This document shows positions 13,787 to 62,958 of a stretch of DNA of 64,000 nt, piece after piece. Location: the NCBI RefSeq assembly GCF_004010195.1, contig NC_057724.1:28696983-28760982 (forward strand). The letters run 5' to 3'. Below the pieces are notes generated by a model, which had not been told where the DNA came from, did not search any database, and saw only the letters and a program-made list of their open reading frames with translations. Position numbers and translations under genes: made by a program. Within the stretch, counting starts at the first letter, position 1. Every line of letters begins with the position of its first letter. Source of the DNA: Chiloscyllium plagiosum (taxonomy: Eukaryota).

Positions 13787-16264
13787 TTGTGTTGCCCCTT
13801 GCTCTATCCCTTGCAGCTGTGCTGTGTGGAGCCACTTAGAATGGCAACGATACTTTGTTTTGAGAGGTGAGAACTCTCTTTTCATCCCCTTCCTTCGCTG
13901 CCTGTGGCTATGCACCTTTTTTTTTGTAAAGTCTTCTCCCCATTCCCTCAAACATTAGTAACTTCTGAAGCCTTTAATCATTCCCTAAAAAGCCATCTTC
14001 TCTAAGGTCTCTGGCTCTTCCCGCAGTGGCTAGGCTTGACCCTTTTCCTTGTTCAGTGTCTTCCTTGCAGTTACCAGTTCCGAGGTGATAGTCTTCTGGA
14101 ATGCTATTTTTGCTCTGCTGCTGTTCCCATTATTGCAGATGACTAATTGACATTTTTCATGTTTTAGCTGCTAACTTCCTAAAAGCCTTCTGTTCTTAAA
14201 ATTTCACATGTTCAAAAAGTTTATTCTCCAGGGTCAAATAGAATTCAAACTCACAATGCTTATCTTGTGTCTTCTGGTTGTCAACCACTTTGATTTGTTA
14301 CAGGAATAGTTTGCTATCTCCGATTCTGTTTTGCAGATTTCTTCTTTCTGATAAACCTGTTCAGACATGTTATTACGCACTTTCAGAACAGGTGGGACTT
14401 TAATCTCGGCCTCCTGGCTCAGAAGGAGGGACATTTGCCCAAGGATCTGGATTGTCAATCTTGTGACATTAGCACCCCACCTCTCCAATTCTCCATTATA
14501 GATAGTTACCTAATCAAGCTGTACAGAGGGGTTTTATTATAGCATGGAGCAATTGAGAATTTTCTTCAGAAGACTCAAAAACATTAATTCTGTTTCTTTT
14601 TCCACAGATGCTGCCAGACCCTCTGAGTTTCTCCAACATTTATTTCAGAATTCCAACATTTGGTGGAGTTTGCTTTTATGCAAGATTAACTGTTTCTTCA
14701 TCCAAAGACTCTATGACATTATCAGAGTGGTAAATTTTCCCTGGCCACTGTATGGCAATCTGTAATTACAAATTAAACTTTAACTTTTCCAGAGCCATTA
14801 ACCCGTACAAGAATCATGTTAATTGAATTTAGTTGCTCAGTTTTTAATTAACCAATTTTTTGATTTCATTTGTATTAGTCACTGTAACTAAGTTTTTTTT
14901 TTAAAAATTTACCAGTAGCGAATGTTTGATTCTTAATCAAGTTCCATACATATTGTGCATTTTGAAAAGTCTTGTTGTATAATGAAGTAGAATTCATGAG
15001 ATTTAGCGTCCTGATTGTTTTAGACGTTCTAGAGGTTTTAAACATATAATAAGGTCCTTTAGCCCATCAAGTCTGTGCTGGTCAAAAACAAGCACCTAAA
15101 TATTCTCGAGATATTCTATTGACTTAGCTCTTATTACTATTTGGGGTGGAACAGGTTTACAAAGATGATGAGGATACAAGACTTAAAAATAAAGCCAATA
15201 CTTGCTCTTCATTAGACAAAGAATGTCAAGAAAAATGCTGTCTACTTTTGTAATCTGAGAGCATCTCAGAACATTTTGTACTAAAATATAAAACATATCA
15301 ACATCTGATCATAGCAATATGGAAGAGATCATGTGAATTAACTGGTGCTTTCACAGATCAATCAACTAACTAAGAGTTCCATTTACTGTCATACAAAGCT
15401 TTGTTCTTAAAATAGTTGCAGCTATATAACTGCTGATAAAGGCATACCAATATAATTATTAAATCTATTGTAGTGTGGTCAGACTATTCCTGAACTACTT
15501 AATTGCTGAAGACCTATCGTATTCTCTAAATTCACAGTAGTTCTGCTCTCTTATAATGTAAGGTCCAGTTTTACTGTTTATTTCCATATAGCTGGGAAAA
15601 TTTGCATCTCTTGCATTGTTTCTATGCTGAATAAAAGTTTTGGCCACAAGTTCGGATCCATAGTGCTGCTGGTGCCAGCATTACTGGCACACATGTTTAG
15701 AAAGATGTTCGTGGGGAGATTTTGAAGTCACTCAATATCTAATGCTGATTTGGTGCACATTCTGCCATTATTATGGACTTTGCAATATCTGTTAATGCCC
15801 TCTCATGACAATCTCAGCTGAATGCATCAAGACACCACTGTCAGCACTATTTACAGGGTTCATTATGGGAATTTTATGTGGAGTGCTTTGACTTTGTTTT
15901 ACTGCAACTGAATTAGTGGAGTGGGCTGGAGTCAGAGCGAGTGTTGGACTTTTCCAAAGCGCTGTGGAGTTTGAAAGTCAGAAACCTGTTGAAGAAGGGA
16001 TATGGGGTGCTGTTAGCCAAACATGGAGGTTGTTCACAGGGAGGAGGATGCTTCTAAATAAAAAGCAAGAACCTGGAAACCTCAGAAAGACTCTTCTATT
16101 TTCTCCTCCTCCAACCACATCTGAAGCTACAGAGCAAGCCAAGAATGGTCCAACAGTCGCCATGAGGATTGCTGTGACCCTCGGCTTCCTCACAAATAAT
16201 TTCTGGCTGGAGTCAGTGACATTGCCAATATCTCAACGTTCGCCACAAAGTAGACCCCTCTAAA

Positions 16265-18593: not shown

Positions 18594-20645
18594 ATTTGTA
18601 TTTACTGTGGAAAAGGATATGGAAGATATAGACTGTAGGGAAATAGATGGTGACATCTTGCAAACTTTCCAGATTACAGAGGAGGAAGTGCTGGATGTCT
18701 TGATAAATCCCCAGGACCTGATCAGGTGTACCCGAAAACTCTGTGGGAAGCTAGGGAAGTGATTGCTGAACCTCTTGCTGAGATATTTCTAACCATCGAT
18801 AGTCACAGGTGCGGTGCCGGAGGACTGGAAGTTGGCAAACATGGTGCCACTGTTTAAGAAGGGTGGTAAAGACAAGCCAGGGAACTATAAACCGGTGAGC
18901 CTGACCTTGGTGGTGGGCAAGTTGTTGGAGGGAATCCTGAGGGACAGGATGTATATGTATTTGGAAAGGCAAGGACTGATTAGGGATAGTCAACATGGCT
19001 TTGTGCATGGGAAATCATGTCTCACATACTTGATTGAGTTTTTTGAAGAAGTAACAAAGAAGATTGATGAGGGCAGAGTGGTAGATGTGATCTAAATGTT
19101 CTTCAGTAAGGCAATAGACAATAGGTGCAGGAGTAGGCCATTCTGCCCTTCGAGCCTGCACCACCATTCAATATGATCATGGCTGATCATCCTTAATCAG
19201 TATCCTGTTCCTGCCTTATCTCCATAACCCTTGATTCCACTATCCTTGAGAGCTCTATCCAACTCTTTCTTAAATGAATCCAGAGACTGGGCCTCCACTG
19301 CCCTCTGGGGCAGAGCATTCCACACAGCCACCACTCTCTGGGTGAAGAAGTTTCTCCTCATCTCTGTCCTAAATGGTCTACCCTGTATTTTTAAGCTAAC
19401 CAATGTCCTGTACAGCCGCAACATAACTTCCCAACTCCTGTACTCAATACTCTGACCAATAAAGGAAAGAATACCAAATGCCTTCTTCACTATCCTATCT
19501 ACCTGTGACTCCACTTTCAAGGAGATATGAACCTGCACTCCAAGGTCTCTTTGTTCAGCAAGGTTCCCTTTAGCAAGGTTAGATCTCATGGAATACAGGG
19601 AGAACTAGCCATTTGGATACAGAACTGGCTCAAAACTAGAAGACAAGGTGGTGGTGGAGGGTTGTTCTTCAGACTGGAGGCCTGTGACCAGTAGAGTGCC
19701 ACAAGGATTGGTGCTGGGTCCTCTTTTTGTCATTTACATAAATGATTTGGATATGAGCATAAGAGGTACAGTTAGTAAGTTTGCAGATGACATCAAAATT
19801 GGAGGTGTAGTGGACAGTGAAGCGGGTTACCTCAGATTACAACAGGATTTGGACCAGATGGGCCGAGAAGTGGCAGATGGAGTTTAATTCAGATAAATGT
19901 GAGGTGCTGCATTTTGGAAAAGCAAATATTAACAGGACTTAAACTTAATGGTAAGGTCCTAGGGAGTGTTGCTGAACAAAAAGACCTTGGAGTGCAGGTT
20001 CATATCTCCTTGAAAGTGGAGTCGCAGGTAGATAGGATAGTGAAGAAGGCATTTGGTATGCTTTCCTTTATTGGTCAGAGTATTGAGTACAGGAGTTGGG
20101 AAGTTATGTTGCGGCTGTACAGGACGTGGGTTAGGCCACTGTTGGAATATTGCATGCAATTCCGGTCTCCTTCCTATCGGAAAGATGTTGTGAAACTTGA
20201 AAGGGTTCAGAAAAGATTTACAAGGATGTTGCCAGGGTTGGAGGATTTGAACTACAGGGAGAGGCTGAACAGGCTGGGACTGCTTTCCCTGGAGCATCAG
20301 AGGCTGAGGGGTGACCTTATAGAGGTTTACAAAATTATGAGGGGCATGGATAGGATAAATAGTCAGTCTTTTCCCTGGTGTTGGGGAGTCCAGAACTAGA
20401 GGGCATAGGTTTAGGGTGAGAGGGGAAAGATATAAAAGAGACCTAAGGGGCAACTTTTCCACGCAGAGGGTGGTTACGTGTATGGAATGAACTGCCAGAG
20501 GATGTGGTGGAGGCTGGTACAATTGCAACATTTAAGAGGCATTTTGGTGGGTATATGAATCTGAAGGGTTTGGAGGGACATGGGCTGGGTGCTGGCAGGT
20601 GGGACTAGATTGGGTTGGGATATCTGGTCAGCATGGATGGGTTGT
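18594..20645 (+). mobile_element. Young CR1/HER1 LINE, 5'-truncated, frameshifted, with internal composite insertion 19113-19562
   Basis: RT motifs PEDWKLANMVPLFKKG, QHGF, PQG, KFADD, LERVQKRFTRM; near-identical to the copies at 36516, 53905 and 61340. Confidence 0.92.
19113..19395 (-). mobile_element. 3' end of a second CR1 subfamily inserted in antisense
   Basis: Minus-strand LKIQGRPFRTEMRRNFFTQRVVAVWNALP and (ctattgt)n tail; related to 57650-58140. Confidence 0.85.
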
Positions 20646-22800: not shown

Positions 22801-23400
22801 AGAGACAAAGAAAAACTACAGATGCTGGAATCCAAAGTAGACAGGCAGGAGGTTTGAAGAATACAGCAAGCCAGGCAGCATCAGGAGATGCAGAAGTCGA
22901 CATTTTGGGTGTAGGGGGACCTGCAGATAAAGAGGATGGCAGGAGCAGTGTGGTGAAGTAGGGATAGTTGAAGATAATGTACAGGGTACGACCTGGTAGG
23001 TCAATGGGAGGAATAAATTTGGTAGATGGCTGGGAGTGGAAGGTAGGGGGAGGGGCTGGGAAGGGATTTTATATGAAATCTGAGAACTCAATGTTGAGTT
23101 CTCCAGGATGTAGGCTGCAGGCGGAAGATGAAGTGTTGTTCCTCCAATTTGCGGTTTGGTTCGTTGTGGCAATGGAGGCGGCCAAGGAGGGTCATGTCGG
23201 AAAGGGAGTAGGAAGGGCAATTTAAAATGGGTGGTGACTAGGAGGTCCAGTTGGCACCTGCTGGCCTGGCTGAGATCCTTGGAGAACCGTTTCCTAAGTT
23301 CACCTGCCTCTCCTCCAACCTACTTTACTGCATCCGATGCTCCTGATGTGATCTCTACGTCGGGGAGACCAAATGTAAACTTAGGGAATGGTTCATAAAC
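22801..23400 (-). mobile_element. Neptune-type Penelope fragment: pLTR and 3' end on minus, short inverted GIY-YIG piece (about 23305-23400) on plus
   Basis: acagatgctggaatcc...caggcagcatcaggag pLTR; TYFTASDAPDVISTSGRP segment is a frameshifted YCIRCSxCxLYVGET motif on the opposite strand. Confidence 0.6.
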
Positions 23401-45800: not shown

Positions 45801-48800
45801 CCAATTTTCAGCATTTAATAACCCTGATTAAATACTGCATGAACTAAATGAAGATCTGATTAATGCCACTTCTCTCATCAGCTATCATTGAAAGCATTGG
45901 ATTTACATAATGTGATGTTTATGTGCTTTGAAGCTATTTACTGAAGTCAACAAGCCAATCAAGCACTGGTTTGTTGTGAAATATAAGTAAAAATAACAAC
46001 AATAAAATCAGAAATTGTCAATCTCACAAGTCGAAATAAAATTTATATTACGTACGGAGAGGTTCAGAATATTGCATATGAACCTTTCGTGTGGAGACTA
46101 AAATTGTTCTCCATTTTTGATGGAGGAAAGGAATATAGAGTCACCTACCAATGGTGCCTTTCTAATGTAACTGAATATAGTCCTTTTATATAAATTTCTA
46201 TCAGCAGGAAATTACAGAAGGAAGGAATTTGGACACAATTATGCAATTTTAACTCAATCGTAACTCAGTTACGAAGTTTAAAGTAGGATCAGTGTCAGCA
46301 AATTATCTGGTTCAGGAAGCTAACTCATGAGCAGTGTACACTGGACACTGGAACTACTTAACCCATAAAATGCTTCGATCCTTTATCATTGCAGTTACTG
46401 TTGAAGAAGCCAGTGAAAGGCCTAACTCTCTTGCATATCTAACATAAAACTTGCTATCTCTTAACTGTCTATAGTTAACTGTGTTTGTAATTTCTTGGCC
46501 CGCCATGTTTTTAGATTATAAACATGCGATGAGCAGTTTGAGTAGATCGTTTGGGCCCTCAAGCTTGCTCTACAATTCAATACGATTATGGCTGATTTGT
46601 GTGTGTTTCAAATATCACATTCTCGTTTATTCCCAATAATGTTTGCTTCCCTTCCCGAACAAGAATTTATATTCTAAAAGCAAAATATTGTGAATGCTGG
46701 AGATCCAAAATAAAAACAATAAGTGCTGGAGAAACTCAGCAAGTCTGTCAGCATCAGTGGAGAGATAAAAACAGATTTAACATTTTTGAGTTTGATGAAT
46801 CATTGGCTTTGAAACATTAACTTTGTTTCTATCTCCACAGATTTTCCCAGACTTGCTGGGCTTCTCCAGCAATTTCTGTTTTAATCTACTTATGCCTTAA
46901 GATTTAATGACCCCCACTTTTACCTTCATCTGAGACAATTTCAAAGACTCATAGATTTTTCTCATCTCTGTCCAAAAAGGGCAATCCCTGATTTTCAAAC
47001 AGTGCCTCCTAGTTCTGAACTAGTCCACAAGAAGGAATGTCCTTTCCATGGCCTTCTTGTCAAGGCCATTCAGGATTTCCTACACTTCAAACCGGTCACC
47101 CCTTAACTCTAAACTCCCAACAAACATAAGTAGTCTGTCCAACCTATTCTCTTATTTCAGCCCATTCATTCCAAACACCAACGTACTAAGCCTCCTCTGA
47201 AAAGCCTCCAAAACATTTACATTCTTCATTAAGTAAGGAAACCAAAACTGTATTTGAAATATGTTCACTCAATGTAATGTTTAACTGAAGCACAACATCC
47301 TTACTGATATGTTCAATTCCTGTAATAAAACATAGCATCCTATTGACCTGTTGATTATGTACTGTATTTGCATTCAAAGTTTGTGAGAAGATTTGTAGCT
47401 CGGGTGCTCGTTGTTGTGGTTCTGTTCGCCGAGCTGGGAACTTGTGTTGCAGACGTTTCGTCCCCTGTCTAGGTGACATCCTCAGTGCTTGGGAGCCTCC
47501 TGTGACGCGTTTCTGTGATCTTTCCTCCGCCATTTGTAGTGGTTTGAATCTGCCGCTTGCGGTTGTCAGTTCCAGCTGTCCTTTGCAGTGGTCAGTATAT
47601 TGGGTCCAGGTCGATGTGCTTATTGATTGTATAGATCTACAGATTCAATCAACACAGGAATTCTTAGACATCATCAGAAATATACACATAGACAAGGAAG
47701 AAACCATGGTCTCATTCGATGTAACGGCACTGTTCACCTCTATCGACAAAACCCTAGCCAGAGAAGCAATAGCCAACCTGCTGGACATACAGAACAGACA
47801 ATAGGACGTTGAACCTATCAACAAAGACGGCATACTCAAACTACTCGACCTGTGCCTCACAACATGCTTCACATTCAATAACCAAATATATGAACAAATC
47901 AACGGCACACCCATGGGCTCACCCATCTCTGGACTCGTTGCAGAAGCGGTAACGCAAAGATTAGAACAAACAGTCTTACCACAAATTCAACCCAAACTCT
48001 GGGTCAGATATGTGGATGATACCTTTGTAATCATTAAAAACACAGCAATAGAGAACACACACCGGATCATCAACGACACATTCACAGGAATCCGATTCAC
48101 GAGAGAGGAAGAAAAGGACAACCAACTCCCATACCTAGACGTGGTGGTACAGAGAACACCTAACGGAGAATTCACCACAAAGGTATACAGGAAAGCCACA
48201 CACAGACCAAGTCCTGAACTACGAAAGCAACCACCCCAACACACACAAAAGAAGTTGCATCAAGAAACTATTCAAAAGGGCCACAACACACTGCAGTACA
48301 CCAGAATGCAAAAAGAGGAAGAAGAACACCTATACAACGTATTCGCCAAAAACGGATACCCCGCGCAATTTCATCAATAGATGCCTAAGGGAAAGACAAC
48401 GGAATGAGGACATGCCGCAACCCAAAGGACTAGCCACACTACCATACATCAAGAGCATTTCCGAACTGACAGCCAGACTATTGCGACCACTAGGACTCAT
48501 TACAGCACATAAACCAGCAGCCACTCTCAGACAACAACTCACCAGAACGAAGGACCCAATACCCAGCATGAGCAAAACCAATGTAGTGTACAAAATCCCA
48601 TGCAAGGACTGCACAAAACACTACATAGGACAAACAGGAAGACAGCTAACAATCCGCATCCATGAACACCAACTAGCCACGAAACGACACGACCAACTAT
48701 CCTTAGTAGCCACACATGCAGATGACAAGTATCATGAGTTCAACTGGGACAACACTACTATTATAGGACAAGCCAAACAGAGAACAGCCAGGGAATTCCT

Positions 48801-51800
48801 GGTTGGCACTCATCCACAGATTCAATCAATAAGCACATCGACTTGGACCCAATATACCCTGCAACGGACAGCTGGAACTGACAACCGGAAGCGGCAGATT
48901 CAAACCACTACAAATGCCACCGACCACTGCAACGGACAGCTGGAACTGACAACCGGAAGCGGCAGATTCAAACCACTACAAAATGGCGGAGGAAAGATCA
49001 CAGAAGCGCTTCACAGGAGGCTCCCAAGCACTGAGGATGTCACCGCAACACAAATTCCCAGCTCGGCGAACAGAACCACAACACTGTATTTGCATGTTTA
49101 TGACTCGCGCAGTAGAATACTTAAATCTATCTGCACCTCAGAATTCCACAGTCTTTTTCATTTCAGTAGTATTTTGCTTTTAAATTCTTCTGACTAAAAT
49201 GAGCAACTTCATGTTTTCCAACATTTATACTTCACCTACCAGGTCCCACACAGACCTCTGTGGAACATCCTGCCAATCAGGCAAAGAATGATTTATGCTT
49301 ACTAAGCCAGCCAGCCAATCTTCTTTCCATGCTAGTATAGCACCCCCTGCACTGGGTTTTTATTTCACACTACCTTTTAATATGACATATTATCAGATGC
49401 CTTCTATAAATCTAAGTTTAGTATGTCACTATGTCAACCCTTTACGTTTGCTTGGTATCATTTCTCTTAGGATTATAATTTCACAAAATTCCTTTTCCCT
49501 TCCACCTCCTCCTGATTTGTACCTGTTACTGGATTTTTTTTGTATTCTCTATTGTGTAACAGAAGGAAAATCTTGTTCATTTCATCTGCCATTTCAATAT
49601 TACCTACTCTGAACTCCCATTTTCTCTCACTCTCTCCAGGATTTAATACACACTTTATTTACTTTTTTTTCTCTCCTTTTTTAAATATCAGACAAAGATT
49701 TTTCTATTTGTTTTTACACACCTCGCTAGATTCCACTCACTCCAATTTATTCCTCTTAATTAACTTTTCAGTCATTTTCTCCTGTTCTTCAAATTCTGAC
49801 CAATCATCTGACCTACCACTCATCTTTGCACAGTTGCATGCTTTTTCCTTAAGTTTGAAGCTTTCCTTAATTTCTTTAGTTAACCATACAGATGGTCCTC
49901 TCTTTTTCTTTATAGTGGTGATCTATTTATTCTGAAATATCTCCTGAAATGTTTGCCACTGTGTCCCTATTGATCTACCTTCTAACTTAATAAGCCAGTT
50001 AATTTCAGCTAGCTCAGCTTTCCTGCCCATACTTGTGCTTATTTAGGTTTAACATACTAATCTTAAATGCAACATTTTCCCTTTCAAATGCAATATAGAA
50101 TTCAAACATTGTGTTCGTAGTATACAGGACTGCTGGTATACTGAGGTCATTAATTTTGTCACATTGCACAATTCCGAGATAATATAAAAAGAAAACCAAA
50201 AAACTGCGGGTGCTGGAAATCAGAAACACAAATAGAAGTTGCTGGAAACATTCAGCAGATTCTGGCAGCGTCTCTGGAGATATAAGGTCCAGTGATTCTT
50301 CTTCAGAAATGGGTTTCAGTGAGCAGGTTATTGCTGAGCCGATGCTGCTTGATTGCTCTTGATACCTTCCATCACTTTACTGATGATTGAGACTAATGGG
50401 GTGTTAATTGACCGGGTTGGATTTATCTGGTTTGTTTGTACAAGACATATCTTGCCAATTTTCCATGTTGTTGGGTAGGTACTAGTGTTATAACAGTAGT
50501 GAAAAAGCTTGTCTAGAAGAGTGGCAAGTTCTGGAATACAAGTCTTCAGTGCTACTACTGGAATGTTATCAGGTCCCATAGCCTTTCCGCCATCCAGTGC
50601 CTCCAGTCCCTTTTTGATATCACATGGAGTGAATCAAATTGATGGAAGACTGCCATCTGTGATGCTGAAGACCACTGGAGGAGGCCAAAATGGATCATCT
50701 ACTTGACACTTCTGGCTGAAGATTGTTGCAAATACGTCAGTCTTTTGCACTGATATGTTGGGCTCCCCCATCAATGAGGATGGGGATATTTGTGGAACCT
50801 CCCCTTCCAGTGAGTTCTGAATTGTCCATCCACCATTCATGACTGGAAGTGGCAGAACTTCAAAGTTTAGATCTGATCCATTGGTTGTGGGATTGTTTAG
50901 CCCTATCACATGCTGTTTGGCGTGAAGTAGTCTTGTTTGGTAGCTGCACCAGTTTTACAGGTATGCCTGATGCTGCTCCTGGCATGTCCCCCTGTAGTCT
51001 CCATAGAACCTGGGTTGATCCCTGGCTTGACGGTAGTGCTTGAGTGGTGGATATGTAAAGCCATGAGGTTGCAGATTGTGCTGGAGTACAGTTCTGCTGC
51101 TGTTGATGGCCCAAAGCACCCTCATAGATGCCCAGTCTTGAATTACTAGATCTATTCAAAATCTGTCCCATTTACCAATGTGATAATGCCACATATCAAG
51201 ATGGAGGGTATTTTTAATGTGAAGATGGGACTTTGACTCCATAAGGACTGTGCTGTGGTCACTTTCACTGGTCAGACGATCTACAGCTGGCAGTTTGGTA
51301 AGGATGAGGTCAAGTATGTTTTTCCCTCTTATTGGTTCCCTCACCAACTGCCATATACCCAGTCTAGCAGCTGTGTCCTTTAGGATTTGACACACTCCAT
51401 CAGTCATGCTGCTGCTGAGCCACTTGTGGTGGACGTTGAAATCCCCCACCCAGAGTACATTTTGTAAACTTGCCACCCTCGGTGCTTCCTCCAAATGTTG
51501 TTCAACATGGAGGAGTACTAATTCATCAGTAATGGGAGGAAGGCATATGGAAATCAACAGGAGGTTTTCATGTCGATGTTTAACCTGGAGCCATTATACT
51601 TGGTGTCTGGAGTGAATATTGAGGACTCTTGGGACAATTCCATCATGACTGTATACCACTCTGCTGCCACCCCTGCTGGCTTTGCCCTGTTTGTGGGGCA
51701 GGATATATCCAGGGATAGTGATAGTTGTGTCTGAGGCATTGTTTATGGGGGATATGTTCATGAGCATATCTGGAAGTTGCTTGATTAGTCTGTGAGACCG

Positions 51801-54800
51801 CTGTCCCTGTTTTGTCACTAGTCCCCAGATGTTAGTCAGGAGGACTTTACAGTGTTGACAGGGCTTTTCTTTCTTGTCTACTTTCTGGGTTGATGCCAGG
51901 TAGTCGTCTGGTTTTATTGAGACTTTGTGGAGATTGATTCAATTGAGTGGCTTGCTATGCAGTTTCAGAGGGCAATTGAACGCCAACTGCATTGCTGTGT
52001 GTCTGGAATCATGTAAGCCAGAGCAGATGAAGATGGCAGATTTCCTTCCCTGAATCAGGTAGATTTTTCCAATAATCGATATGGTTTCATTCAGACCTGC
52101 TGCATTTTGCCAGCAATTTCTGCTTTGCTGTGAACCCCTCATCCAGGTTACACTTGCCAATCGAATTTTCTCATTTATTTGTTGACTAAAGTCACCGATA
52201 TTGCCATCTTTTTATCAAAAGTTTTTTTGTAGGTAAGGGAGGTAATTTTGCTGGAATGAAAGCAGTATAGCTGGAAATCTGAAGCAAACACAGAATACTG
52301 GAGAAATTCAGCAGGACTGGGAGTTTGCGGAGAGAGAAACAGAGTTAATGTTTCAAGCCTAGTATGACTTCTTCAGAACTCTTCTGAGGAAGAGTCATGC
52401 CAGATTAAAAACATTAGCTCTGTTTCTGTCTTCACAGATGCTGCCAGACCTGCTGAGTTTCTCCAGTATTCTCTGAATCTTGCAGGAATAACTGTTTGGA
52501 AGATGTATTATTCTCAGGTTGATTTTGCACACTTCCTGACAAAAACAGCCTGTGCATCCTTTCTCTGGAGAAATCAGAACATGTTGAGGACATATTCTCA
52601 GTTAAAAATAGGTTACTATTTGTATTTTAATTTACCTGTCATGGTAGAATGGACCACAGAGCGGGTTTGAAAGTGTGTACAGTCTAGTTATATACATAAA
52701 TGGCACTTTGTGACAAAATATGGACTGTAATGAACATGAACAGCTAGTGTTCTTAGTACTGGTACTCAATTAGTATTGAATTATATACCCTTTTACTTTA
52801 AGTTACACTTCTTTTTAGGTGTATGTAGAACATGTGATGGGGCTATAAATATTTATGAATAGCATCAGTTGTGGTAGAGAGTTGAGTCCATGCCAGCAGC
52901 CTCTACGTGAGGTTGATTGGTGTCTGTAGGTGTTAATGTTGGGATAGTCAAGTCAATAGCTGAGTTAGTGTTTGCCTTTTCAGGCCTCTCTTACCTTGAG
53001 CAAATTTAGCTTTCTACCAATACAGCATTGGTAAATAGCAGTGGAAATGACTTGTCATATTTTAGTGCCCCACACAATTCCCCTAACAAAAGATTCTGCA
53101 AAATAAAGTCAGCAAGAAATAAGGGAAAATGTCTAAGTTGTGCAGGGACTTTGTGATATTAAGTTGCTTTGACTTAGCTGGTATTTCTATGGCCAATCCA
53201 ATTTATTTTTCCACTTTAAGGAATCGGTTCCATAACCAGTCCCTTTCAGGCCGCCTGTATTCGGATGGAATCAATCAAGCAAGGTATTCAAGGTGATTGG
53301 CATGTTTACTTGATGCATTTGTGTTAACATGCTGTGGTGTTAGTATCATTTTTCTTCTTTACACCTTTTATACTGTACAATGATTTTAATAAATCCTATG
53401 ATGGGGTGTTTAATATTTGCATCTATCGACTGTACTCAAATTGTACTGAAGTTATGGATTCCAATCAAATCAGCAAAGCTACTTTGGAGCATATGTGCAC
53501 TAAACCCTGAGTATATCATGTGCGATTGGGGAAGGAAGTAAAATTGTAATGCTCCACTTGCTTGAGAGCAAAAAGAAAGTGTTAAAAAGTAAGGTTATTT
53601 ACTAAAATTATCTGCAAACATAGCTTGTGAATGAGATATAAGAGGAGATTTGTACAAAAAAAAAATTCTTTTGTTCCCTTTCCCATTCCTGATCTTTTTT
53701 TTCTTGGTCTTCTGTTATGCTTTGTTTCTGTTTACAGTTTTCCAATTGGTTTTCTACGTTGTTCATCGTATTTCAGTTCTACATCTGAACTCGTATCTTC
53801 TTCTCTTTAAGCCTCAACTAACTCAAATCCTTCGCCCTTTCATATTATGGACAGAGTCTTCTGCTATCATGTCTTCACACCTTTTGGAATACTCTTGCAA
53901 CAATAGACCCAATATAAAAGTTGAAGTTCTAAATTGGAGAAAGGCCAATTTTGACGGTATTAGGCAAGATCTTTCAAAAGCTGATTGGGGGCAGATGTTC
54001 GCAGGTAAAGGGACGGCTGGAAAATGGGAAGCTTTCAGAAATGAGGTAATGAGAATCTAGAAAAAGTATATTCCTGTTAGGGTGAAAGGAAAGGCTGGTA
54101 GGTTTAGGGAATGCTGGGTAAAGAAGTTGAGGGTTTGGTTAAGAAAAAGAAGGAAGCATATGTCAGGTATAGACAGGATAGATTAAGTGAATCCTTAGAA
54201 GAGTATAAAGGCAGTAGGAGTATACTTAAGAGGGAAATCAGGAGTGCAAAAAGGGTACATGAGATAGCTTTGGCAAATAGAATTAAAGATAATCCAAAGA
54301 GTTTTTACAAATACATTAAAGACAAAAGGGTAACTAGGGAGACAATATGGCTCCTCAAAGATCAGCAAGGCGGCCTTTGTGTGGATCGGCAGAAAATGGG
54401 GGGAGATACTAAATGAGTATTTTGTATCATTATTTACTGTAGAAAAGGACATGGAAGATATAGAATGTAGGGAAATAGATGGTGACATCTTGCAAAATGT
54501 CCATATTACAGAGGAGGAAGTGCTGGATGTCTTGAAATGGGTAAAGGTGGATAAATCCCCAGGACCTGATCAGGTGTACCCCTCGAACGCTGTGGGAAGC
54601 TAGAGAACTGATTGCTGGATTTCTTGCTGAGATATTTGTATCATAAATAGTCATAGGTGAGGTGCCAGAAAACTGGAGGTTGGCAAACGTCGTGCCACTG
54701 TTTAAGAAGGGTGGTAAGGACAAGCCAAGGAACTATAGACCAGTGAGCATGACCTTGGTAGTGGGCAAGTTGCTGGAGGGAAATCTGAGGGACAGGATGT

Positions 54801-57800
54801 ACATGTATTTGGAAAGGCAAGGACTGATTAGGGATAGTCAACATGGCTTTGTGTGTGGGAAATCATGTCTCACAAACTTGATTGAATGTTTTGAAGAAAT
54901 AACAAAGAGGATTGATGAGGGCAGAGCGGTAGATGTGATCTATATGGACTTCAGTAAGGTGTTCGATAAGGTTCCCCATGGGAGACTGGTTAGCAAGGTT
55001 AGATCACATGGAATATAGAGAGAACTAGCCATTTGGATACAGAACTGTTTCAAAGGTAGAAGACCGTGGGTGGTAATGGAGGGTTATTTTTCAGAATGGA
55101 GGCCTGTGACCAGTGGAATGCCACAAGGATCGGTGCTGGGTCTACTGCCTTTCATCATTTATATAAATGATTTGGATGCGGGCATAAGAAGTATGGTTAG
55201 TAAGTTTGCAGATGACACCAAAATTGGAGGTGTAGTGGACAGCGAAAAAGGTTACCTCAGAATACAACAGGATCTGGACCAGATGGGCCAATGGACTGAG
55301 AAGTGGCAGATGGAGTTTAATTCAGATAAATGTGAGGTGATGCATTTTGGGAAAGCAAATCTTAGCAGGACTTATATACCTTAATGGTAAGGTGCTAAGG
55401 AGTGTTGCTGAACAAAGAGACGTTGGAGTGCAGGTTCATAGCTGCTTGAAAGTGGAGTTGCAGGTAGATAGGATAGTGAAGAAGGCGTTTGGTATGCTTT
55501 CCTTTATTGGTCAGAGTACTGAGTACAGGACTTGGAAGGTCATGTTGCGGCTGTATAGGACATTGGTTAGGCCACTGTTGGAATATTGCGTGCAATTCTG
55601 GTCTCCTTCCTATCAGAAAGATGTTGTAAAACTTGAAAGGATTCAGAAGGTATTTACAATGATGTTGCCAGGGTTGGAGGATTTGAGCTATAGGGAGAGG
55701 CTGGGGCTGTTTTCCCTGGAGCGTCGGAGGCTGAGGGGTGACCTTATAGAGGTTGACAAAATTATGAGGGGCATAAATAGACAAAGTCTTTTCCCTGGGG
55801 GGGGGGGGGGGGGAGTCCAGAACTAGAGGGCATAGGTTTAGGGTGAGAGAGGAAAGGTATAAAAAAGACCTAAGGGGCAACTTTTTCACGCAGAGGGTGG
55901 TATGTGTATGGAATAAGTTGCTAGAGGAAGTGGTGGAGGCTGGTACAATTGCAACATTTAAGAGGCATTTGGATGGGTATATGAATCGGAAGGGCTTGGA
56001 GGGATGTGGGCCAGGTGCTGGCAGGTGGGACTAGATTGGGTTTGGATATCTGGTCAGCATGGCTGGGTTGGACCTAAGGGTCTGTTTCCATGCTGTACAT
56101 CTTTATGACTCTAAGTCTTGCTAACTCTTTCCCAATCTCAAAATCTCCTTGCTTGGTCGTGTTTGTACTCCATGAAATTGCATTTTCTCCCTTGAATCCT
56201 GATGTACTTTTCGATCTTTCATGAAATTAATATGTCGTATAGTTACACATTGTATTCATGAATACCATTCATTGTATTGCCAAATTTACCAATAAGAATA
56301 TAAAAATCTCAAAGGAATTTGGACCGCTTGAACTGGAGTACATCATAATAAATCTAATTTAAAAGAAGCAAAGGATATAGTTTCATGTGCATAGAAGGGA
56401 CGCATATTTATTATTAAAATACCAATTAATGGAAAAAAAGATAATTGGCCATACATTGAAGTTTCCAATTCATAAGTGTTGCCAGAGAGGCAATTTCAGT
56501 ATCTGTTAAGCATTTCAAGGACAATAATTGAATAGTCCTACACCTACACCTATAATAAATAATCTAAATGTCAATAGTTTATTTTTAAAAATCTACTTTG
56601 TTATGTTTATGTGCAAATGGGTCCCTTTTCATTGTGCTTGTGGAATTTTCTGCAAACTTGATTTTACAAAGTTTGGTAAAATCCATACTACTGACAGATG
56701 ACCAACTTCTATTCAGGTGGATTTTTTTGGCAAGTTAAAAAAGGAATGATGTACACTTGAATAATAAATATTTAGTTTGTATACTGATGTACCAGTCTTT
56801 CAAAGAGCTGTCAAGGTGTTGCAGAAGAGGCTGCTAAATAAGATAAGACCTGATGATGTTAGGAACAAGGTGATGGCATGGATAAAGAAGGCTGAAAGTG
56901 TGGATAAAGGGGTCTTTTCCAGAATGGTAGCTGGTGACTACTAGATTCCTGCAGGGGTCAGTGTTGGGGCCACAACTATTCACATTATACATGAACAATT
57001 GGAATGAAGAAACTGAGGACATTATTGCTAAGTTTGCAGAAAACACAAAGACTGAGGGACAGGTGGTGTTGAGGAGGTGGGTTGGTGCAAAAGGATTTGG
57101 ATAGGCTAGGAGATTGGGCGAAGAAGTAGCAAATGGAATATAATGTGGGATGGTTTGAGGTTATACAATTTGGTAGGATTAATAGAGGCATAGAGTATTT
57201 TTTAAATGGAGAAAGACTTTAGAAATCTGAAGTATAAAGGAACTTAGTGCTAGTTCAGGATTCTCAAGGTTAATATGCAGGTCTAGGCAATTAGGAGGCA
57301 AATGCAATGGTAGCATTCATTTTGAGATAGCTAGAATGCAAGAGGGATGTAATGCTGAAGCTGTATAAGGCTTTAGTCAGATTACATTTGGAATATTGAG
57401 AGCAGTTTTGGGCCCTGTATCTAAAGAACAATGCCCTGGCCTGGAAGGGGTCCAGAGGAGATTTACAAGAATGATCCTGTGGATGAAAGGCTTGTCTTAC
57501 GAGGAGCAGTTGAAGACTCTGGGTTTGTACTGGATGGAGTTTAGAAGGATGAATGGGATCTCGTGGAAACTTAGAGAATATTGAGAGCCATGGATAGATT
57601 GGACATGGAGAATGTGTTTCTGCTAGACCGGGACCCAAAGGTACAGCTTCAGAGTGAAGGGATAACCCTTTAGAACTGAGATGAGGAATTTCTTCAACCA
57701 GAGGATGGTGAATCTGTGGAATTCATTACCACAGAAGACTGTGGAGACTTGATGACATAGATAGGGTCTTGATTAGTTGGGGGATCAAAGGTTACAGGGC

Positions 57801-60800
57801 AAAGGCAGGAGAATTGGGTTAAGAAACAGAGCAGAGTCAAGATTAGAGTGGTGCTGGAAAAACACAGCAGATCAGGCAGCATCCAAGGAGCAGAAAATTG
57901 ACATTTCTGGCAAAAACCCTTCGTCAGGAATGAGGCCTGATGAAGGGCTTTTGCCCGAAACATAGATTTTCCTGCTCCTCGGATGCTGCCTAACGTGAGC
58001 TTTTCCAGCACCACTCTATTCTTGACTCTGATCTCCAGCATCTGCAGTCCTCATTTTCACCTAAGAAACAGATCAGCCATGATCAAGTGGGAGGGCAGAC
58101 TCAATGGACTGAATAGACTAATTCTACTCCTATATATTACTGTCTATTATTATGGCTCTCAACTATACATTTGGAGGAGGAAGAGGAGAGACCAGTTTAT
58201 CAAATGCTGAGCTGTTTTTTTAGTTTCAAGGAAGTGAATGAATGGTGATTCAGTGCGTCTGTTACTGCAGAATGCGTTTTCACTGAATGAGCTTCAATAC
58301 ATTAGTCCTTGTCATGATTGTATTAAGATACCTCTCTACAATAAAAGACTTGCATTTATATATGACTGCATGTATTCTTTGAGACATCAGAAAGCTCTTC
58401 TCAGGAAATTTATATTTAAAGTATAATTACTGCTGGATTGATATTCCTCTATCTTTGTGGGATTTCAAAACTAGAAAAAAGATTGATTGTTACAACATGA
58501 TAACAAGAAGTTGTACATTCCAGGATTTCTTAGCTTCTTAGAGCAGTTCCCATGAATTAGAAGGTAGCAAACATTAGAAGGAAGCCTATTATTTAAGAAA
58601 GGAGGGAAAGGCAAAACTAGCAATTACAGACCAGTTAGTCTATCGTTTATCTCGGCAAAATGCTAAAATTTATAATTAGCAATGTGGTAACAGGCACTTA
58701 GAAAATCATGCCATGGTTAAGCAAAGCCAACGTTTGTGGTTTATTAAGGGAAAATGTGTTTGCTAAATCTGAGTTTTTGAGGATATTAGATGATTAAGAA
58801 GGGACCAGTAGTTGTAATACTGTAATATGTTTGGAATGTACTACAGGAGATTGTTGCAGAAAATTAGAACTTATAGGGGTGGGGTGGGGTGGGGGGTTAG
58901 GTATTGGCAGAGATTGAAGACTTGTTAATGGACAGAAGAATGAGTAGGAATAAACATGTACTTTTGGATTGTCATATTGTAACTAGTGATATACTTCAAG
59001 GATCAGTACTTGAGATTCAGCTTTTTACAATTCATCTTTGTGATCTAAATGAAGGACTGACAAAATATTAAAGTTTGTTAATAGGAAAGTAAATGCTGAG
59101 GATGATGCAGAGAAACTACGTAAGAATAGAAACTGGTTGGATGGGTGGACATGAACGTTGAATGCAATATGGTGAAGTTATCCGCTTTAGTGAAAAAAGT
59201 TTAAAAGTAGAATATTTTTGGTGAAAAACTGGGCAAAGTTAGCGAATTAGAGAGCCCTGGGTGTCCTTGTAAGTGTATCATAAAGTTAATATGCTATTGC
59301 AGCAAGCTGTTATGAAGGCAAATGGTATGTTATCTTTTGTTTGGTGCATAACAGCAAAGACATTTTACTCCCATTGTACAGGGAACTCATGAGGATGTGC
59401 AAGGAATGCTTTACCTCATGAATAACATACTTGACCAAGGCTGAGTATAACAAAGATTTGCCAAAGTGGTTCTAGCGGTAAGTGACTGGCTGTTGAGCAG
59501 ATAATGAGTAGATTAGGTCTTTATTACTTAGACTTTAGAAGATCGGATTGAAAAATGCACAATTCTTTTGGGACTTTACCGTGTTGATGCTGAGAAAATG
59601 TGTATCCTAAATGGAAGTATGGCTCCTGTCGGAGAATAAGGAATCAACCATTAAAGAGATGAAGAGGAATGTTTTCACTGAGTGCTGCAGAGACTGGTAG
59701 ATATTGATGGTGTTCAAGACTGACATTAATTTTTTTGTGTGTGTTTTAAAGAATGTGGGAACAGCGCAGGAAGGTAGATTTCAGGTGGAAGATCAGCCGT
59801 GATCTTGTTGAATGACATAGCAGGCTTGGAAGGCAAAACAACCTGCTCCTCCTAATTCTTACATTCTTACAGTACCCTTTAATGTATGGAACCATCTCAG
59901 GATGCTTTACAGATACAATTTCAGAAAAAAGATTGGGAGGCGTGATCCAGAACTAGGTCAAAGAAATGAATTTTGAGGAGATGTTTAAGGAGTAGAGTGT
60001 GGTACCTGGATGGAAATTGACATTGTTAAGTGTGGGACAAAGAAAATGAAGCATGCACAAAGTCAGATTCATAAGAGTGGAGAGTTCATGGGGATATGTT
60101 TGGTTGTCTGGCTGGAAGAGGTTGGAGATGATTTAAAGTAAAGCTATGAAGGCAGTTTAGCATGTTGATTATTGGAATTTAAAATTTCTTCCTGGTGACA
60201 GGGTGTCAATGCAGACCAACAAGGATGAGGATAATGGATGAGTGAAATGGCATTGGTTATGATATGGTTAGTAGAGTTTAATTGATCCGGTTTATGGATG
60301 GTAGATTTTTTTGTAGAATTAAGGAGTCTGCGCTAGCTGATAAAGCTTTTCCTAGTGATTAACATTTTGCCATAAATCTGAAAGTTGAAGTTTGACAAGG
60401 TCTGTTCTGCATAATAATTGTATTTCAGAAATTGGGGAGTGCTTTCCTAAAACCACAATTGGAAATGAACAAAGTTTGTTTGCCTTCTAATTTTCCAGCA
60501 TTACCCATGACTACACAGTGCCTGAGGGAGTCCTTGAAAATTTCAGTGTCATGGAAATTGTAACACTCCGGCGTCAGGTAAAAAGTTTTGACCAGCAACA
60601 TTTATGTGTATAGTATAATAAATGTGACGATTAGACTGTTGCAGGAACAGGAACTTTCCTGGAGTTGGGATTTAGTTTTATTTTCAGGGCTGTGTGTATC
60701 CTTATCTGGAAAATGTTTTCCAAACACAACATGAAGAATGGGTGTTGGACAATTTGTCCAAAATCTTAGACTGCAAAGCAACTTCAGACGCTCAGTAAAA

Positions 60801-61076
60801 TAATTTTAACACTAGATTGTCCTCCTAGTTTGTAGAGATCCAATTTAAATCCGTGGGAAAGGGGAAGAAAACAATGATTTGTTGTTTTTATTTTGGTGTT
60901 GAACTCCTTCATTGTGCAATAGGGTTAACCTTTCTCTCTTTCAGCTGAACAAGTTGAATCGGCGCCTACAATTATTGGAACAGGAAAGTCGGGACCATGC
61001 TCGAAAGGAATTTGTACTCTATTCCATCATCATAGCAGCTTGTTTTGTCAACAGTTGGCTCTGGTTGAGGAAGTAG
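33683..61076 (+). CDS. Mitochondrial fission factor (MFF)/FATE1-family gene, 7 coding exons, 296 aa; syntenic position of FATE1
   Basis: Exons of 214+158+89+156+63+79+132 = 891 nt, all GT-AG, compatible phases (1,0,2,2,2,0), no internal stop. MFF hallmarks: MRIPNRLKV and MQIPERISMG repeats, RSRALSEN, LRRQ|LNKLNRRLQLLE coiled coil, tail anchor ending NSWLWLRK*. Confidence 0.9.
35446..37935 (-). mobile_element. Antisense CR1 LINE (35446-36515 and 37809-37935) split by a younger copy
   Basis: Minus-strand LYRTLVRPLLEYCVQF, RGNVFTQRVVQMWNEL; the QHxF/KSC junction is broken at about 36514 and resumes at about 37809 (GNYRLVSLTSVVG). Confidence 0.8.
36516..37808 (+). mobile_element. Young 5'-truncated CR1/HER1 LINE
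   Basis: 259-aa open RT fragment with GVPQGS and KFADD; intact 3' UTR and ctatgactatga tail. Confidence 0.93.
38720..38990. repeat. Degenerate (CA)/(CT) low-complexity tract
   Basis: Directly visible; explains the spurious His/Thr/Leu-rich ORFs. Confidence 0.75.
39480..40570 (+). mobile_element. Old L2/CR1-group LINE RT 3' fragment
   Basis: LVALDIEAPFD-like (KAFD) motif at about 39580, and MECAPLALMNATILKKLDTIQDKAACVIG. Confidence 0.6.
40925..41082 (+). CDS. MFF/FATE1-like coding exon 2
   Basis: Acceptor cctttctctttag, open frame ETEMQDIGARPYLYGWFHNNPSITDPPPLSISPNLIFGPSHALNMDRPESPVQ, donor CAG|GTGTGT; phase 1 to 0 fits its neighbours. Confidence 0.78.
41220..41710 (-). mobile_element. Deu-domain SINE (SacSINE1/AmnSINE-like) with an embedded Penelope pLTR piece (about 41380-41452)
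   Basis: ttgcattt...cccaaagc...ttgaggga...gaatagtaccatgggatc, reverse complement of the recalled Deu core; parallels 44130-44480. Confidence 0.55.
42160..42248 (+). CDS. MFF/FATE1-like coding exon 3 (RxRxxSEN motif)
   Basis: Acceptor ttattttattgcag, TATTQHSSRSRALSENEICLSSVSRRQRN, donor GTAAGT; phase 0 to 2; resembles the MFF RERSMSEN exon. Confidence 0.82.
44130..44745 (-). mobile_element. Deu-domain SINE interrupted by a CR1 3' end (about 44497-44685, minus)
   Basis: ttgaggaattaatattggccaggacacc...gtctcatctgaaa...gcactccctcagta is the reverse complement of the recalled Deu domain; tRNA-like head remnant accaactaagccac at about 44720. Confidence 0.65.
45244..45399 (+). CDS. MFF/FATE1-like coding exon 4 (symmetric 156-nt cassette)
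   Basis: Acceptor ccattctatag, open only in phase 2: ADHSSGPKHPFPSPGPGQASFSIHNVCNVLIYVGQKLSEYLMEAVNQKMQR; donor AG|GTGATT. Confidence 0.75.
46676..46882. mobile_element. Palindromic Penelope pLTR-derived miniature element (degenerate)
   Basis: gctggagaaactcagcaagtctg ... cagacttgctgggcttctccagc inverted arms; gaaacattaact hammerhead 3' remnant. Confidence 0.65.
47374..49082 (+). mobile_element. Penelope-like retroelement (Poseidon-type): inverted pseudo-LTR, 5'-truncated RT, GIY-YIG endonuclease, pseudo-LTR; 13-bp TSD
   Basis: VSFDVTALFTSI, GTPMGSPIS, WVRYVDDTF, NVVYKIPCKDCTKHYIGQTGRQLTIRIHEH. 47374-47629 is largely the reverse complement of 48823-49082. ACTGTATTTGCAT at 47361-47373 and 49083-49095. 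Stop and frameshifts present. Confidence 0.95.
47448..47489 (-). ncRNA. Minimal type I hammerhead ribozyme motif in the Penelope pseudo-LTR
   Basis: Minus strand GCA-CUGAGGA-U-GUCaCCU(AGAC)AGGgGAC-GAAA-CGUC-UGC: complete core, stem II, palindromic ACGU stem III, GUC cleavage triplet, 3-bp stem I. Confidence 0.75.
50190..50312 (-). mobile_element. Penelope pLTR fragment with truncated hammerhead
   Basis: aactgcgggtgctggaaatcagaaac...ctggcagcgtct...ggtccagtgattcttcttcagaa. Confidence 0.65.
50313..51935 (-). mobile_element. L2/CR1-group LINE fragment with APE endonuclease and RT N-terminus
   Basis: LWVGDFNVHH, REPIRGKNILDLILT, SDH (APE motifs) and MGPDNIP...PTTWKIG (RT start); frameshifted. 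Confidence 0.8.
52258..52475. mobile_element. Palindromic twin-hammerhead pLTR miniature element with degenerate 14-bp TSD
   Basis: Inverted arms centred near 52380 (cttcagaact|cttctgagga); flanks aattttgctggaat (52244-52257) and aatcttgcaggaat (52476-52489), 12/14 match. Confidence 0.75.
53221..53283 (+). CDS. MFF/FATE1-like coding exon 5 (symmetric 63-nt cassette)
   Basis: Acceptor tttttccactttaag, NRFHNQSLSGRLYSDGINQA, donor AAG|GTATTC; CpG-containing island in an AT-rich intron; phase 2-2. Confidence 0.68.
53905..56113 (+). mobile_element. Young CR1/HER1 LINE, longest copy (about 2.2 kb), frameshifted
   Basis: NWRKANFDGIR, DKSPGPDQ, YMDFSKVFDKVPH, PQGS, KFADD, 3' UTR and atgactcta tail; poly-G expansion at about 55797-55813. 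Confidence 0.95.
56835..58145 (+). mobile_element. Older CR1 LINE 3' half, split by a palindromic insert
   Basis: cctgcaggggtcagtgttggggcc (PQGSVLG), aagtttgcaga (KFA), LEGVQRRFTRMI, 3' UTR atcagccatgatc. Confidence 0.8.
57831..58061. mobile_element. Palindromic twin-hammerhead pLTR miniature element with perfect 11-bp TSD
   Basis: TAAGAAACAGA at 57820-57830 and 58062-58072; arms cagagtcaagattagagtggtgctggaaaa / ttttccagcaccactctattcttgactctg; CTGATGAagggcttttgcccGAAA at 57937-57960 and its inverted partner at 57904-57927. Confidence 0.85.
58440..59870 (+). mobile_element. Very old CR1 LINE RT fragment
   Basis: tttaagaaaggaggg...aattacagaccagttagtct (FKKG..NYRPVSL), cttcaaggatcagtactt (QGSVL), CR1 3' UTR gatcagccgtgatc. 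Confidence 0.7.
60499..60577 (+). CDS. MFF/FATE1-like coding exon 6
   Basis: Branch-point-like ttctaat plus tttccag acceptor, ITHDYTVPEGVLENFSVMEIVTLRRQ, donor CAG|GTAAAA; ends in LRRQ like MFF. Confidence 0.88.
60945..61076 (+). CDS. MFF/FATE1-like last coding exon (coiled coil plus C-terminal tail anchor)
   Basis: Acceptor tttctctctttcag; LNKLNRRLQLLEQESRDHARKEFVLYSIIIAACFVNSWLWLRK then TAG at 61074-61076; compare MFF IIKLNRRLQLLEEENKERAKREMVMYSITVAFWLLNSWLWFRR (recalled). Confidence 0.93.
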   Translation: MNKLNRRLQLLEQESRDHARKEFVLYSIIIAACFVNSWLWLRK

Positions 61077-61339
61077 GTTCATTCTAACTGCATTTGTAGA
61101 GTTGGAGAAGAGTGCTACGAACTGACAGACAGGACATCTTCTGAATGCAGCAAGACGGAGTATTGGTTTCACTTGTGAAGCAATCTGTACTATCACTGAA
61201 ATACAAAGATGACTTTCAAACAGTTTACTGACATCTTTTTAATAGCATTGCGATGTAGGTTTAGGCAAGTCGTACTGCAAGTGTTACAGTGTAATGCATT
61301 CAAAACCTAATTGATTAGTTTAAAATTAACTAACAACTT

Positions 61340-62958
61340 CAGGGTGAAAGGAAAGGCTGGTAGGTATAGGGAATGCTGGATGACGAAAGAAATTGAGGGT
61401 TTGGTTAAGAAAAAGAAGGAAGCATATGTAAGGTATAGACAGGATAGATCGAGTGAATNNNNNNNNNNNNNNNNNNNNNNNNNNNNNNNNNNNNNNNNNN
61501 NNNNNNNNNNNNNNNNNNNNNNNNNNNNNNNNNNNNNNNNNNNNNNNNNNNNNNNNNNNNNNNNNNNNNNNNNNNNNNNNNNNNNNNNNNNNNNNNNNNN
61601 NNNNNNNNNNNNNNNNNNNNNNNNNNNNNNNNNNNNNNNNNNNNNNNNNNNNNNNNNNNNNNNNNNNNNNNNNNNNNNNNNNNNNNNNNNNNNNNNNNNN
61701 NNNNNNNNNNNNNNNNNNNNNNNNNNNNNNNNNNNNNNNNNNNNNNNNNNNNNNNNNNNNNNNNNNNNNNNNNNNNNNNNNNNNNNNNNNNNNNNNNNNN
61801 NNNNNNNNNNNNNNNNNNNNNNNNNNNNNNNNNNNNNNNNNNNNNNNNNNNNNNNNNNNNNNNNNNNNNNNNNNNNNNNNNNNNNNNNNNNNNNNNNNNN
61901 NNNNNNNNNNNNNNNNNNNNNNNNNNNNNNNNNNNNNNNNNNNNNNNNNNNNNNNNNNNNNNNNNNNNNNNNNNNNNNNNNNNNNNNNNNNNNNNNNNNN
62001 NNNNNNNNNNNNNNNNNNNNNNNNNNNNNNNNNNNNNNNNNNNNNNNNNNNNNNNNNNNNNNNNNNNNNNNNNNNNNNNNNNNNNNNNNNNNNNNNNNNN
62101 NNNNNNNNNNNNNNNNNNNNNNNNNNNNNNNNNNNNNNNNNNNNNNNNNNNNNNNNNNNNNNNNNNNNNNNNNNNNNNNNNNNNNNNNNNNNNNNNNNNN
62201 NNNNNNNNNNNNNNNNNNNNNNNNNNNNNNNNNNNNNNNNNNNNNNNNNNNNNNNNNNNNNNNNNNNNNNNNNNNNNNNNNNNNNNNNNNNNNNNNNNNN
62301 NNNNNNNNNNNNNNNNNNNNNNNNTACAACAGGATCTTGACCAGATGGGCCAATGGGCTGAGAAGTGGCAGATGGAGTTTAATTCAGATAAATGCGAGGT
62401 GCTGCTTTTTGGGAAAGCAAATCTTAGCAGAACTTATACACTTAATGGTAAGGCCCTAGGGGATGTTGCTGAACAAAGAGACTTTGGAATGCAGGTTCAT
62501 AGCTCCTTGAAAATGGAGTTGCAGGTAGATAGGCTAGTGAAGAAGACGTTTGGTATGCTTTCTTTTATTGGTCAGAGTATTGAGGACAGGAGTAAGGAGG
62601 TCATGTTGCAGATATACAGGACATTGGTTAGGCCACTGTTGGAATATTGCGTGCAATTCTGGTCTCCTTCCTATCGGAAAGATGTTGTGAAACTTGAAAG
62701 GGTTCAGAAAAGATTTGCAATGATGTTGCCAGGGTTGGAGGATTTGAGCTATAGGGAGAGGCTGAACAGGCTGGGGCTGTTTTCCCTGGATCATCAGAGG
62801 CTGAGGGGTGACCTTATAGAGGTTTACAAAATTATGAGGGGCATGGATAGGTTAATTAGGCAAAGTCATTTCCCTGGGGTTGGGAGTCCAGAACTAGAGG
62901 GCATAGGTTTAGGGTGAGAGGGGGAAGATATAAAAGAGACCTAAGGGGCAACTTTTTC
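61340..62958 (+). mobile_element. Young CR1/HER1 LINE spanning assembly gap 61459-62324, 3' end missing
   Basis: Both gap flanks match the 53905-56113 copy collinearly; it breaks off at ggcaactttttca. Confidence 0.9.

Follow-up and report, generated by a model that had tools for sequence, protein, structure and literature searches.

The insert at positions 57,820–58,076 of the window (the whole 64,000-nucleotide stretch of Chiloscyllium plagiosum DNA analysed here) very probably pairs two short fragments from the end of a Penelope-like element (PLE) in head-to-head orientation within a 15-bp target site duplication (TSD), and was likely made in one event in which both nicked target strands primed reverse transcription (RT) on element RNA. 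It is one of thousands of mostly differently joined PLE-end insertions, and its reading as a self-copying mini-element is not supported. The locus itself is unremarkable: it is decayed, and insertions of its type are already known.

The host sequence is a decayed LINE with an RT-like ORF2 remnant and a 3' UTR (56,770–58,135, plus strand, boundaries approximate), a putative CR1 by its resemblance. RT-like motifs are readable in its translation, and its Pfam RVT_1 match is weak (E 0.07). The insertion point is the apparent ORF2 stop, where the 3' UTR starts, and the same LINE runs through the empty site in register at 6 of 467 other loci. A further fragment of a LINE of this type lies at 19,293–19,377 on the minus strand.

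An exact 11-bp repeat, TAAGAAACAGA, occupies 57,820–57,830 and 58,062–58,072 with 231 bp between the copies, and the preliminary description accordingly gave a 231-bp insert in an 11-bp TSD. The repeat stands; a 15-bp duplication with one mismatch is the better reading of its length (57,820–57,834 and 58,062–58,076, plus strand, the first 11 positions exact), because a TSD was found in 70 of 93 comparable elements and its commonest lengths were 15 bp (19 cases) and 14 bp (17 cases). The last 7 nt of the left copy also match the left, short-start end of the element, so that the insert comes to about 227 bp; the right copy is host LINE sequence. With the C of CUGAUGA numbered as +1, the minus-strand arm (57,828–57,936) is of the short-start ('A') type and runs from −9 to about +94/+101, and the plus-strand arm (57,936–58,061) is of the tail-start ('B') type and runs from −1 to +128 with a 3-nt deletion. 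They meet at 57,928–57,937, where the minus arm ends at −9, the plus arm starts at −1 and base 57,936 is shared. The arms align in inverted orientation across about 103 nt, and the one-sided 'tail', which is the stretch between the two start sites (58,035–58,061, plus strand), ends at 58,061, in agreement with the earlier account of two inverted arms of about 100 bp and a one-sided tail. The long hairpin proposed in that account was also recovered: the RNA of the insert folds at −131 kcal/mol (z = −14.5), a value equalled by none of 200 shuffles. Weak, older arm matches occur elsewhere in the window at 52,437–52,482, 50,203–50,272, 46,723–46,755, 22,856–22,905, 14,607–14,638 and 12,552–12,583, and those near 50,203–50,272 form a pair on both strands.

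Each arm carries a minimal hammerhead motif, and the two cores lie 9 nt apart on opposite strands. The plus-strand hammerhead (57,937–57,964) keeps its core (CTGATGA-A-GGGC TTTT GCCC-GAAA, 57,937–57,960) and stem II intact, with the palindromic ACGUC after GAAA changed to ACAUA. The minus-strand hammerhead (57,900–57,927; CTGACGA-A-GGGT TTTT GCCA-GAAA at 57,927–57,904) is decayed, with a CUGACGA core and a broken closing pair in stem II, and it keeps the GUC site. The preliminary description was right that both core motifs are present and that both are altered; its hammerhead call is not matched by Rfam at E ≤ 10 in 54,000–62,000, where the scan returned weak miRNA-family matches. The altered letters after GAAA (57,961–57,965) recur in four other copies (L003, L019, L029, and L072); they may derive from a minor variant of the source and not from decay confined to this copy.

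The relationship of the arms to a PLE emerges from the copies elsewhere in the genome. A 25-mer from the hammerhead has 26,334 exact matches in 3.56 Gb; the arm extends upstream at 1,695 exact matches, and the tail runs on into the element body at 1,036. Coding sequence of the GIY-YIG type comes before the arm in long copies, with motifs in L085 and L060 that run into the arm, as expected of the end of an element whose GIY-YIG endonuclease is C-terminal. Four such pieces were scanned with Pfam: GIY-YIG was above the cut-off (E 1.6e-5) on the body adjoining the arm in L056, RVT_1 was weak and below the cut-off (E 0.005) in L164, beside the family, and L085 gave no Pfam match despite its GIY-YIG motifs. 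Translation of copy L404 shows a body frame that opens at an ATG inside the arm, here at 57,983–57,985 (plus strand), and stays open through the tail into the body, so that this ATG is the likely start of the PLE ORF. Of the features of EN+ PLE insertions, a minimal hammerhead (by motif), a tail at one end, an inverted partner, and a TSD are seen. Judged from sequence, we read the arms as a PLE end that holds the minimal hammerhead, a likely ORF start, and the 'tail', the endonuclease being seen in relatives and not in this copy. The pLTR and tail arrangement described for PLEs likewise covers the ORF start (available text of PMC3846280 and PMC8557442). Of the two origins first suggested for the insert, an extreme truncation product of a Penelope element with an inverted pLTR and tail is supported.

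The idea that the insert yields a ribozyme whichever strand is transcribed is not supported by predicted folding. With the arms placed head to head, the antisense arm is transcribed first from either strand. The predicted probability of stem II is 0.0 on both strands when the whole element is folded, about 1.0 in the plus arm alone and below 0.04 in the decayed minus arm alone, and forcing the hammerhead fold is predicted to cost about 19 kcal/mol. The antisense arm is predicted to bury the ribozyme in a read-through transcript. Both cores are retained in only 8 of 36 sampled pairs. Minimal hammerheads were reported to cleave poorly and to need a same-sense partner (available text of PMC4209133), and the hammerhead of the anole PLE was described as protein-dependent and as dispensable for insertion in vitro (available text of PMC11167929).

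The other origin first suggested was a self-propagating palindromic unit of the MITE or retrozyme kind, which would account for thousands of similar-sized palindromes with TSDs. Close head-to-head pairs do abound in the genome, with 2,825 at a gap of 0–30 nt compared to 426 at 31–61 nt. The junction of this window also recurs, as a 22-mer with 9 exact genome matches and in similar form in 5 of the 30 best BLAST hits, which were chosen for likeness. However, 48 distinct junction strings were counted by eye among the first 50 listed of the 2,825 pairs, and the 9 exact matches come from two or more subfamilies and differ in tail polarity, which is one way round in 4, the reverse in 3, and unclear in 2 (by eye). 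An anchor sample drawn from the 3' end, and so blind to the 5' end, comprised 96 of the first 100 listed among 6,434 matches; like the other anchor samples, it came mostly from the start of one chromosome. It represents 89 insertions, 50 paired and 39 single, and among 36 pairs of one short and one tailed arm there were 35 distinct junction coordinate pairs. The end opposite the tail varies from about +84 to +107, so that the termini are not fixed, and no fixed internal structure as in a MITE was found at these junctions. Because the junctions vary and the exact matches are heterogeneous, the palindrome appears to be rebuilt at each insertion and not inherited. The single arms, the 8 of 36 pairs with both cores, and the stem II probability of 0.0 in the whole element also speak against such a unit, as does the description of metazoan retrozymes as tandem repeats with type I hammerheads (available text of PMC7229834). 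We regard a self-propagating unit as highly improbable in general and as largely refuted for the junction of this window.

Many junctions (e.g., L072, L073, and L109) hold short inserts copied from the hammerhead region, and such short copied inserts are expected of synthesis-dependent end joining. Two near-identical palindromes 1.2 kb apart (L068 and L069, at about G000:C1 10199827 and 10201065) share the same long junction and flanks; this is a local duplication, not transposition.

The 3' ends of the arms fall into two classes, at about +93 and +128, some 35 nt apart, and a pair nearly always holds one of each. One short-start and one tail-start arm were found in 36 of 41 classifiable anchor pairs, with 9 more unclassifiable, and in 152 of 174 pairs over all loci, a set that includes 30 loci picked for likeness to this copy. 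Both sites also serve as the end of single arms, with 14 at A and 25 at B among 39. Where the arms of the 36 pairs differ by more than 10 nt, the shorter is B in 12 and A in 5, the remaining 19 being similar. Both arms of a pair belong to one subfamily: at five diagnostic sites they disagree in 4–12 pairs compared to 29–49 expected, and 168 of 477 derived variants are common to both arms compared to 6.8% in permutations. Such agreement does not discriminate between a single RNA and two RNAs, and gene conversion may have contributed. The two arms of L061 (G000:C1:1117954) have a private internal duplication in common, which clearly shows a single template copied twice. At the short-start end, target and element match at TSD positions 10–12 and 14–15 with a frequency of 0.41–0.49, compared to about 0.26 in controls; the match at the tail end (0.74 and 0.57) is partly built in by the TSD extension procedure.

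One PLE-based alternative to priming on both strands is a snap-back, in which the tail-end cDNA folds at its 3' end and copies itself, and this copy, about 35 nt short of reaching the tail, joins the opposite target end; it is a variant of the self-priming idea in PMC3846280 (available text). The pairing of A with B, the common subfamily of the arms, the short junction palindromes, and the target match at the A end would all follow from it. The tail arm should then never be the shorter one, yet in 12 of 36 pairs it is shorter by over 10 nt, and 14 of 39 single arms end at A without a partner. Many junctions have short inserts and no clean loop, and both sites act as RT starts in vitro (available text of PMC11167929). 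Since either arm may be shorter and single arms end at either site, a simple snap-back is disfavoured, and we judge it unlikely.

For priming on both nicked strands there is a biochemical precedent, as the anole PLE protein cuts and extends both strands in vitro and begins RT at two internal positions, one at each boundary of the tail (available text of PMC11167929). We propose that the endonuclease makes a stagger of about 15 nt, after which priming would take place on one strand at the end of the tail and on the other some 35 nt deeper in the element, probably assisted by a short stretch of matching bases between target and RNA. Each cDNA would then run about 100–130 nt to an RNA 5' end just upstream of the hammerhead, or stop earlier, and host end-joining may link the two cDNA ends via overlaps of 0–5 nt or short inserts. 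Further propagation of the product is unlikely, because everything downstream of the tail is missing and the hairpin is predicted to mask the ribozyme.

The 5' ends of the arms pile up just upstream of the hammerhead. Three anchor sets gave 268 arms, of which 16 ending at N runs were dropped; among the remaining 252, 92 end at −10 to −1 (36 of these at −5/−4), 7 at −30 to −11, and 41 further upstream. The pile-up is therefore broad and not a single base. Copies past −30 number 3 of 96, 20 of 97, and 18 of 59 by set and subfamily, counts that are too low for long copies because 11 of the 16 dropped arms were already past −30. Long copies of the young subfamily (among L031–L060) often meet N stretches just upstream, and long inverted forms are probably under-represented in readable sequence. 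Among 71 ORF-side copies, 24 reach −1, of which 9 stop at −10 to −1 and 15 continue beyond −10. Position −4 is the first base of the likely helix I, and we take it to be also the A of an initiator-like motif. As a possible cap-derived base, a G stands beside the arm in 8 of the 12 single arms that carry additional bases, and in a larger set of 100 listed matches G and A stand at 55 and 45 (by eye).

A second pile-up at the ribozyme cut site, as expected from cleaved templates, seemed present in the first sample (7 of 96 ends at +26 to +31) and was not significant in the pooled count (10 of 63 at +27 to +31, p = 0.09). One palindrome (L139:1500-1600) has both arms ending at +30, beside the cut site, and could be a copy of cleaved RNA, a class without significant enrichment. 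A cluster at +35 to +38 in the young subfamily was also set aside, as it probably arises artificially from comparing variable subfamilies to a single reference.

The 5' pile-up is most simply read as a likely RNA 5' end at −10 to −1, with the stubs as strong-stop-like cDNAs; the copies that run past this supposed end and the breadth of the pile-up weigh against this step. In retroviruses, strong-stop DNA is the short cDNA made when synthesis from an internal primer reaches the RNA 5' end. In its full form, the stubs would be the strong-stop DNA of PLEs: a dimeric RT-endonuclease would use one uncleaved RNA as template, each target strand would be primed at one tail boundary, and both cDNAs would run off the RNA 5' end at the first bases of helix I. 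This full form we advance tentatively, as a possibility that we stop short of calling probable. The two-cDNA route could also be kept with another cause for the pile-up, namely a pause of the RT close to the ribozyme, a 3' splice site, or a master RNA that is short and non-autonomous, which competes with this one step only. A splice-related cause remains a rival because in Drosophila virilis Penelope, which starts 46 bp upstream of an intron (PMC2377424; PMC4209133, available text), that intron ends at the hammerhead, at helix I (PMC4209133). A pyrimidine run ending in CAG lies just upstream (−11 to −9) in the subfamily of this copy, and the share of long copies differs by subfamily as given above. 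However, the young subfamily keeps a limit near −10 although its nearest CAG is further upstream, and no common upstream-exon sequence was seen at the junctions read by eye. An RT stop at −4 caused by the fold is also unlikely, as the rest of the ribozyme would already have been copied by then. Such other causes seem to us somewhat doubtful.

The layout of inverted pLTR, tail, and TSD was already published. EN+ PLEs with an inverted 5'-truncated pLTR, a tail of 30–40 bp, and a TSD share with the present insertions the head-to-head inverted copy, the one-sided tail, and the junction palindromes (available text of PMC3846280 and PMC8557442). They differ in that the partners here are about 100–130 nt, with no body between them, and number in the thousands, and in that the TSD is 14–15 bp here compared to 8–10 bp in the rotifer examples. 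The Poseidon element of Anolis carolinensis (PAc) likewise has a pLTR hammerhead and two internal RT starts that bound the tail, while the available text of that report (PMC11167929) describes no strand preference for the start site and priming without homology, in contrast to the near-constant one-of-each pairing and the weak target match at the inner start seen here. The ORF starts inside the hammerhead in PAc (PMC11167929), compared to apparently +47 here. Metazoan PLE minimal hammerheads show the same core, with an extra base before G10.1 and a short palindromic helix III, and the dual ones of Schistosoma lie 100–700 bp apart on opposite strands, compared to 9 nt here, where both are decayed (available text of PMC4209133). 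Non-LTR retrozymes are similarly small, non-coding, hammerhead-bearing, and PLE-related; they are same-strand tandem repeats giving circular RNA, whereas the unit here is inverted, with one sense core per transcript and without a constant monomer (available text of PMC7229834 and bioRxiv 10.64898/2026.07.22.740005).

In LINE-1 twin priming, the second target strand primes on the RNA and the two segments barely overlap, whereas both segments here copy the same ~100 nt. In the open-access literature searched, we found no published account of a 5' pile-up lying off the cut site or of start sites that pair one of each. The route by which PLEs produce inverted copies and tails was called undefined in PMC8557442, and the later insertion steps were left unvalidated in PMC11167929 (available text of both).

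As a single locus the insert is ordinary, and the class of insertions matters modestly. Such palindromes are open to mis-annotation as MITEs or microRNA hairpins. The set of minimal insertions turns the PLE insertion process into countable constraints: one start per strand, a stagger of 14–15 bp, and ends upstream of, and not at, the cut site. Because of these constraints, dual priming on uncleaved sense RNA is favoured over antisense self-priming. If the strong-stop reading were true, the genome would hold thousands of records of a transposition intermediate that map the start site, the ~15-nt stagger, and the rule of one start per strand, and template jumping or read-through RNA would have to account for the longer copies.
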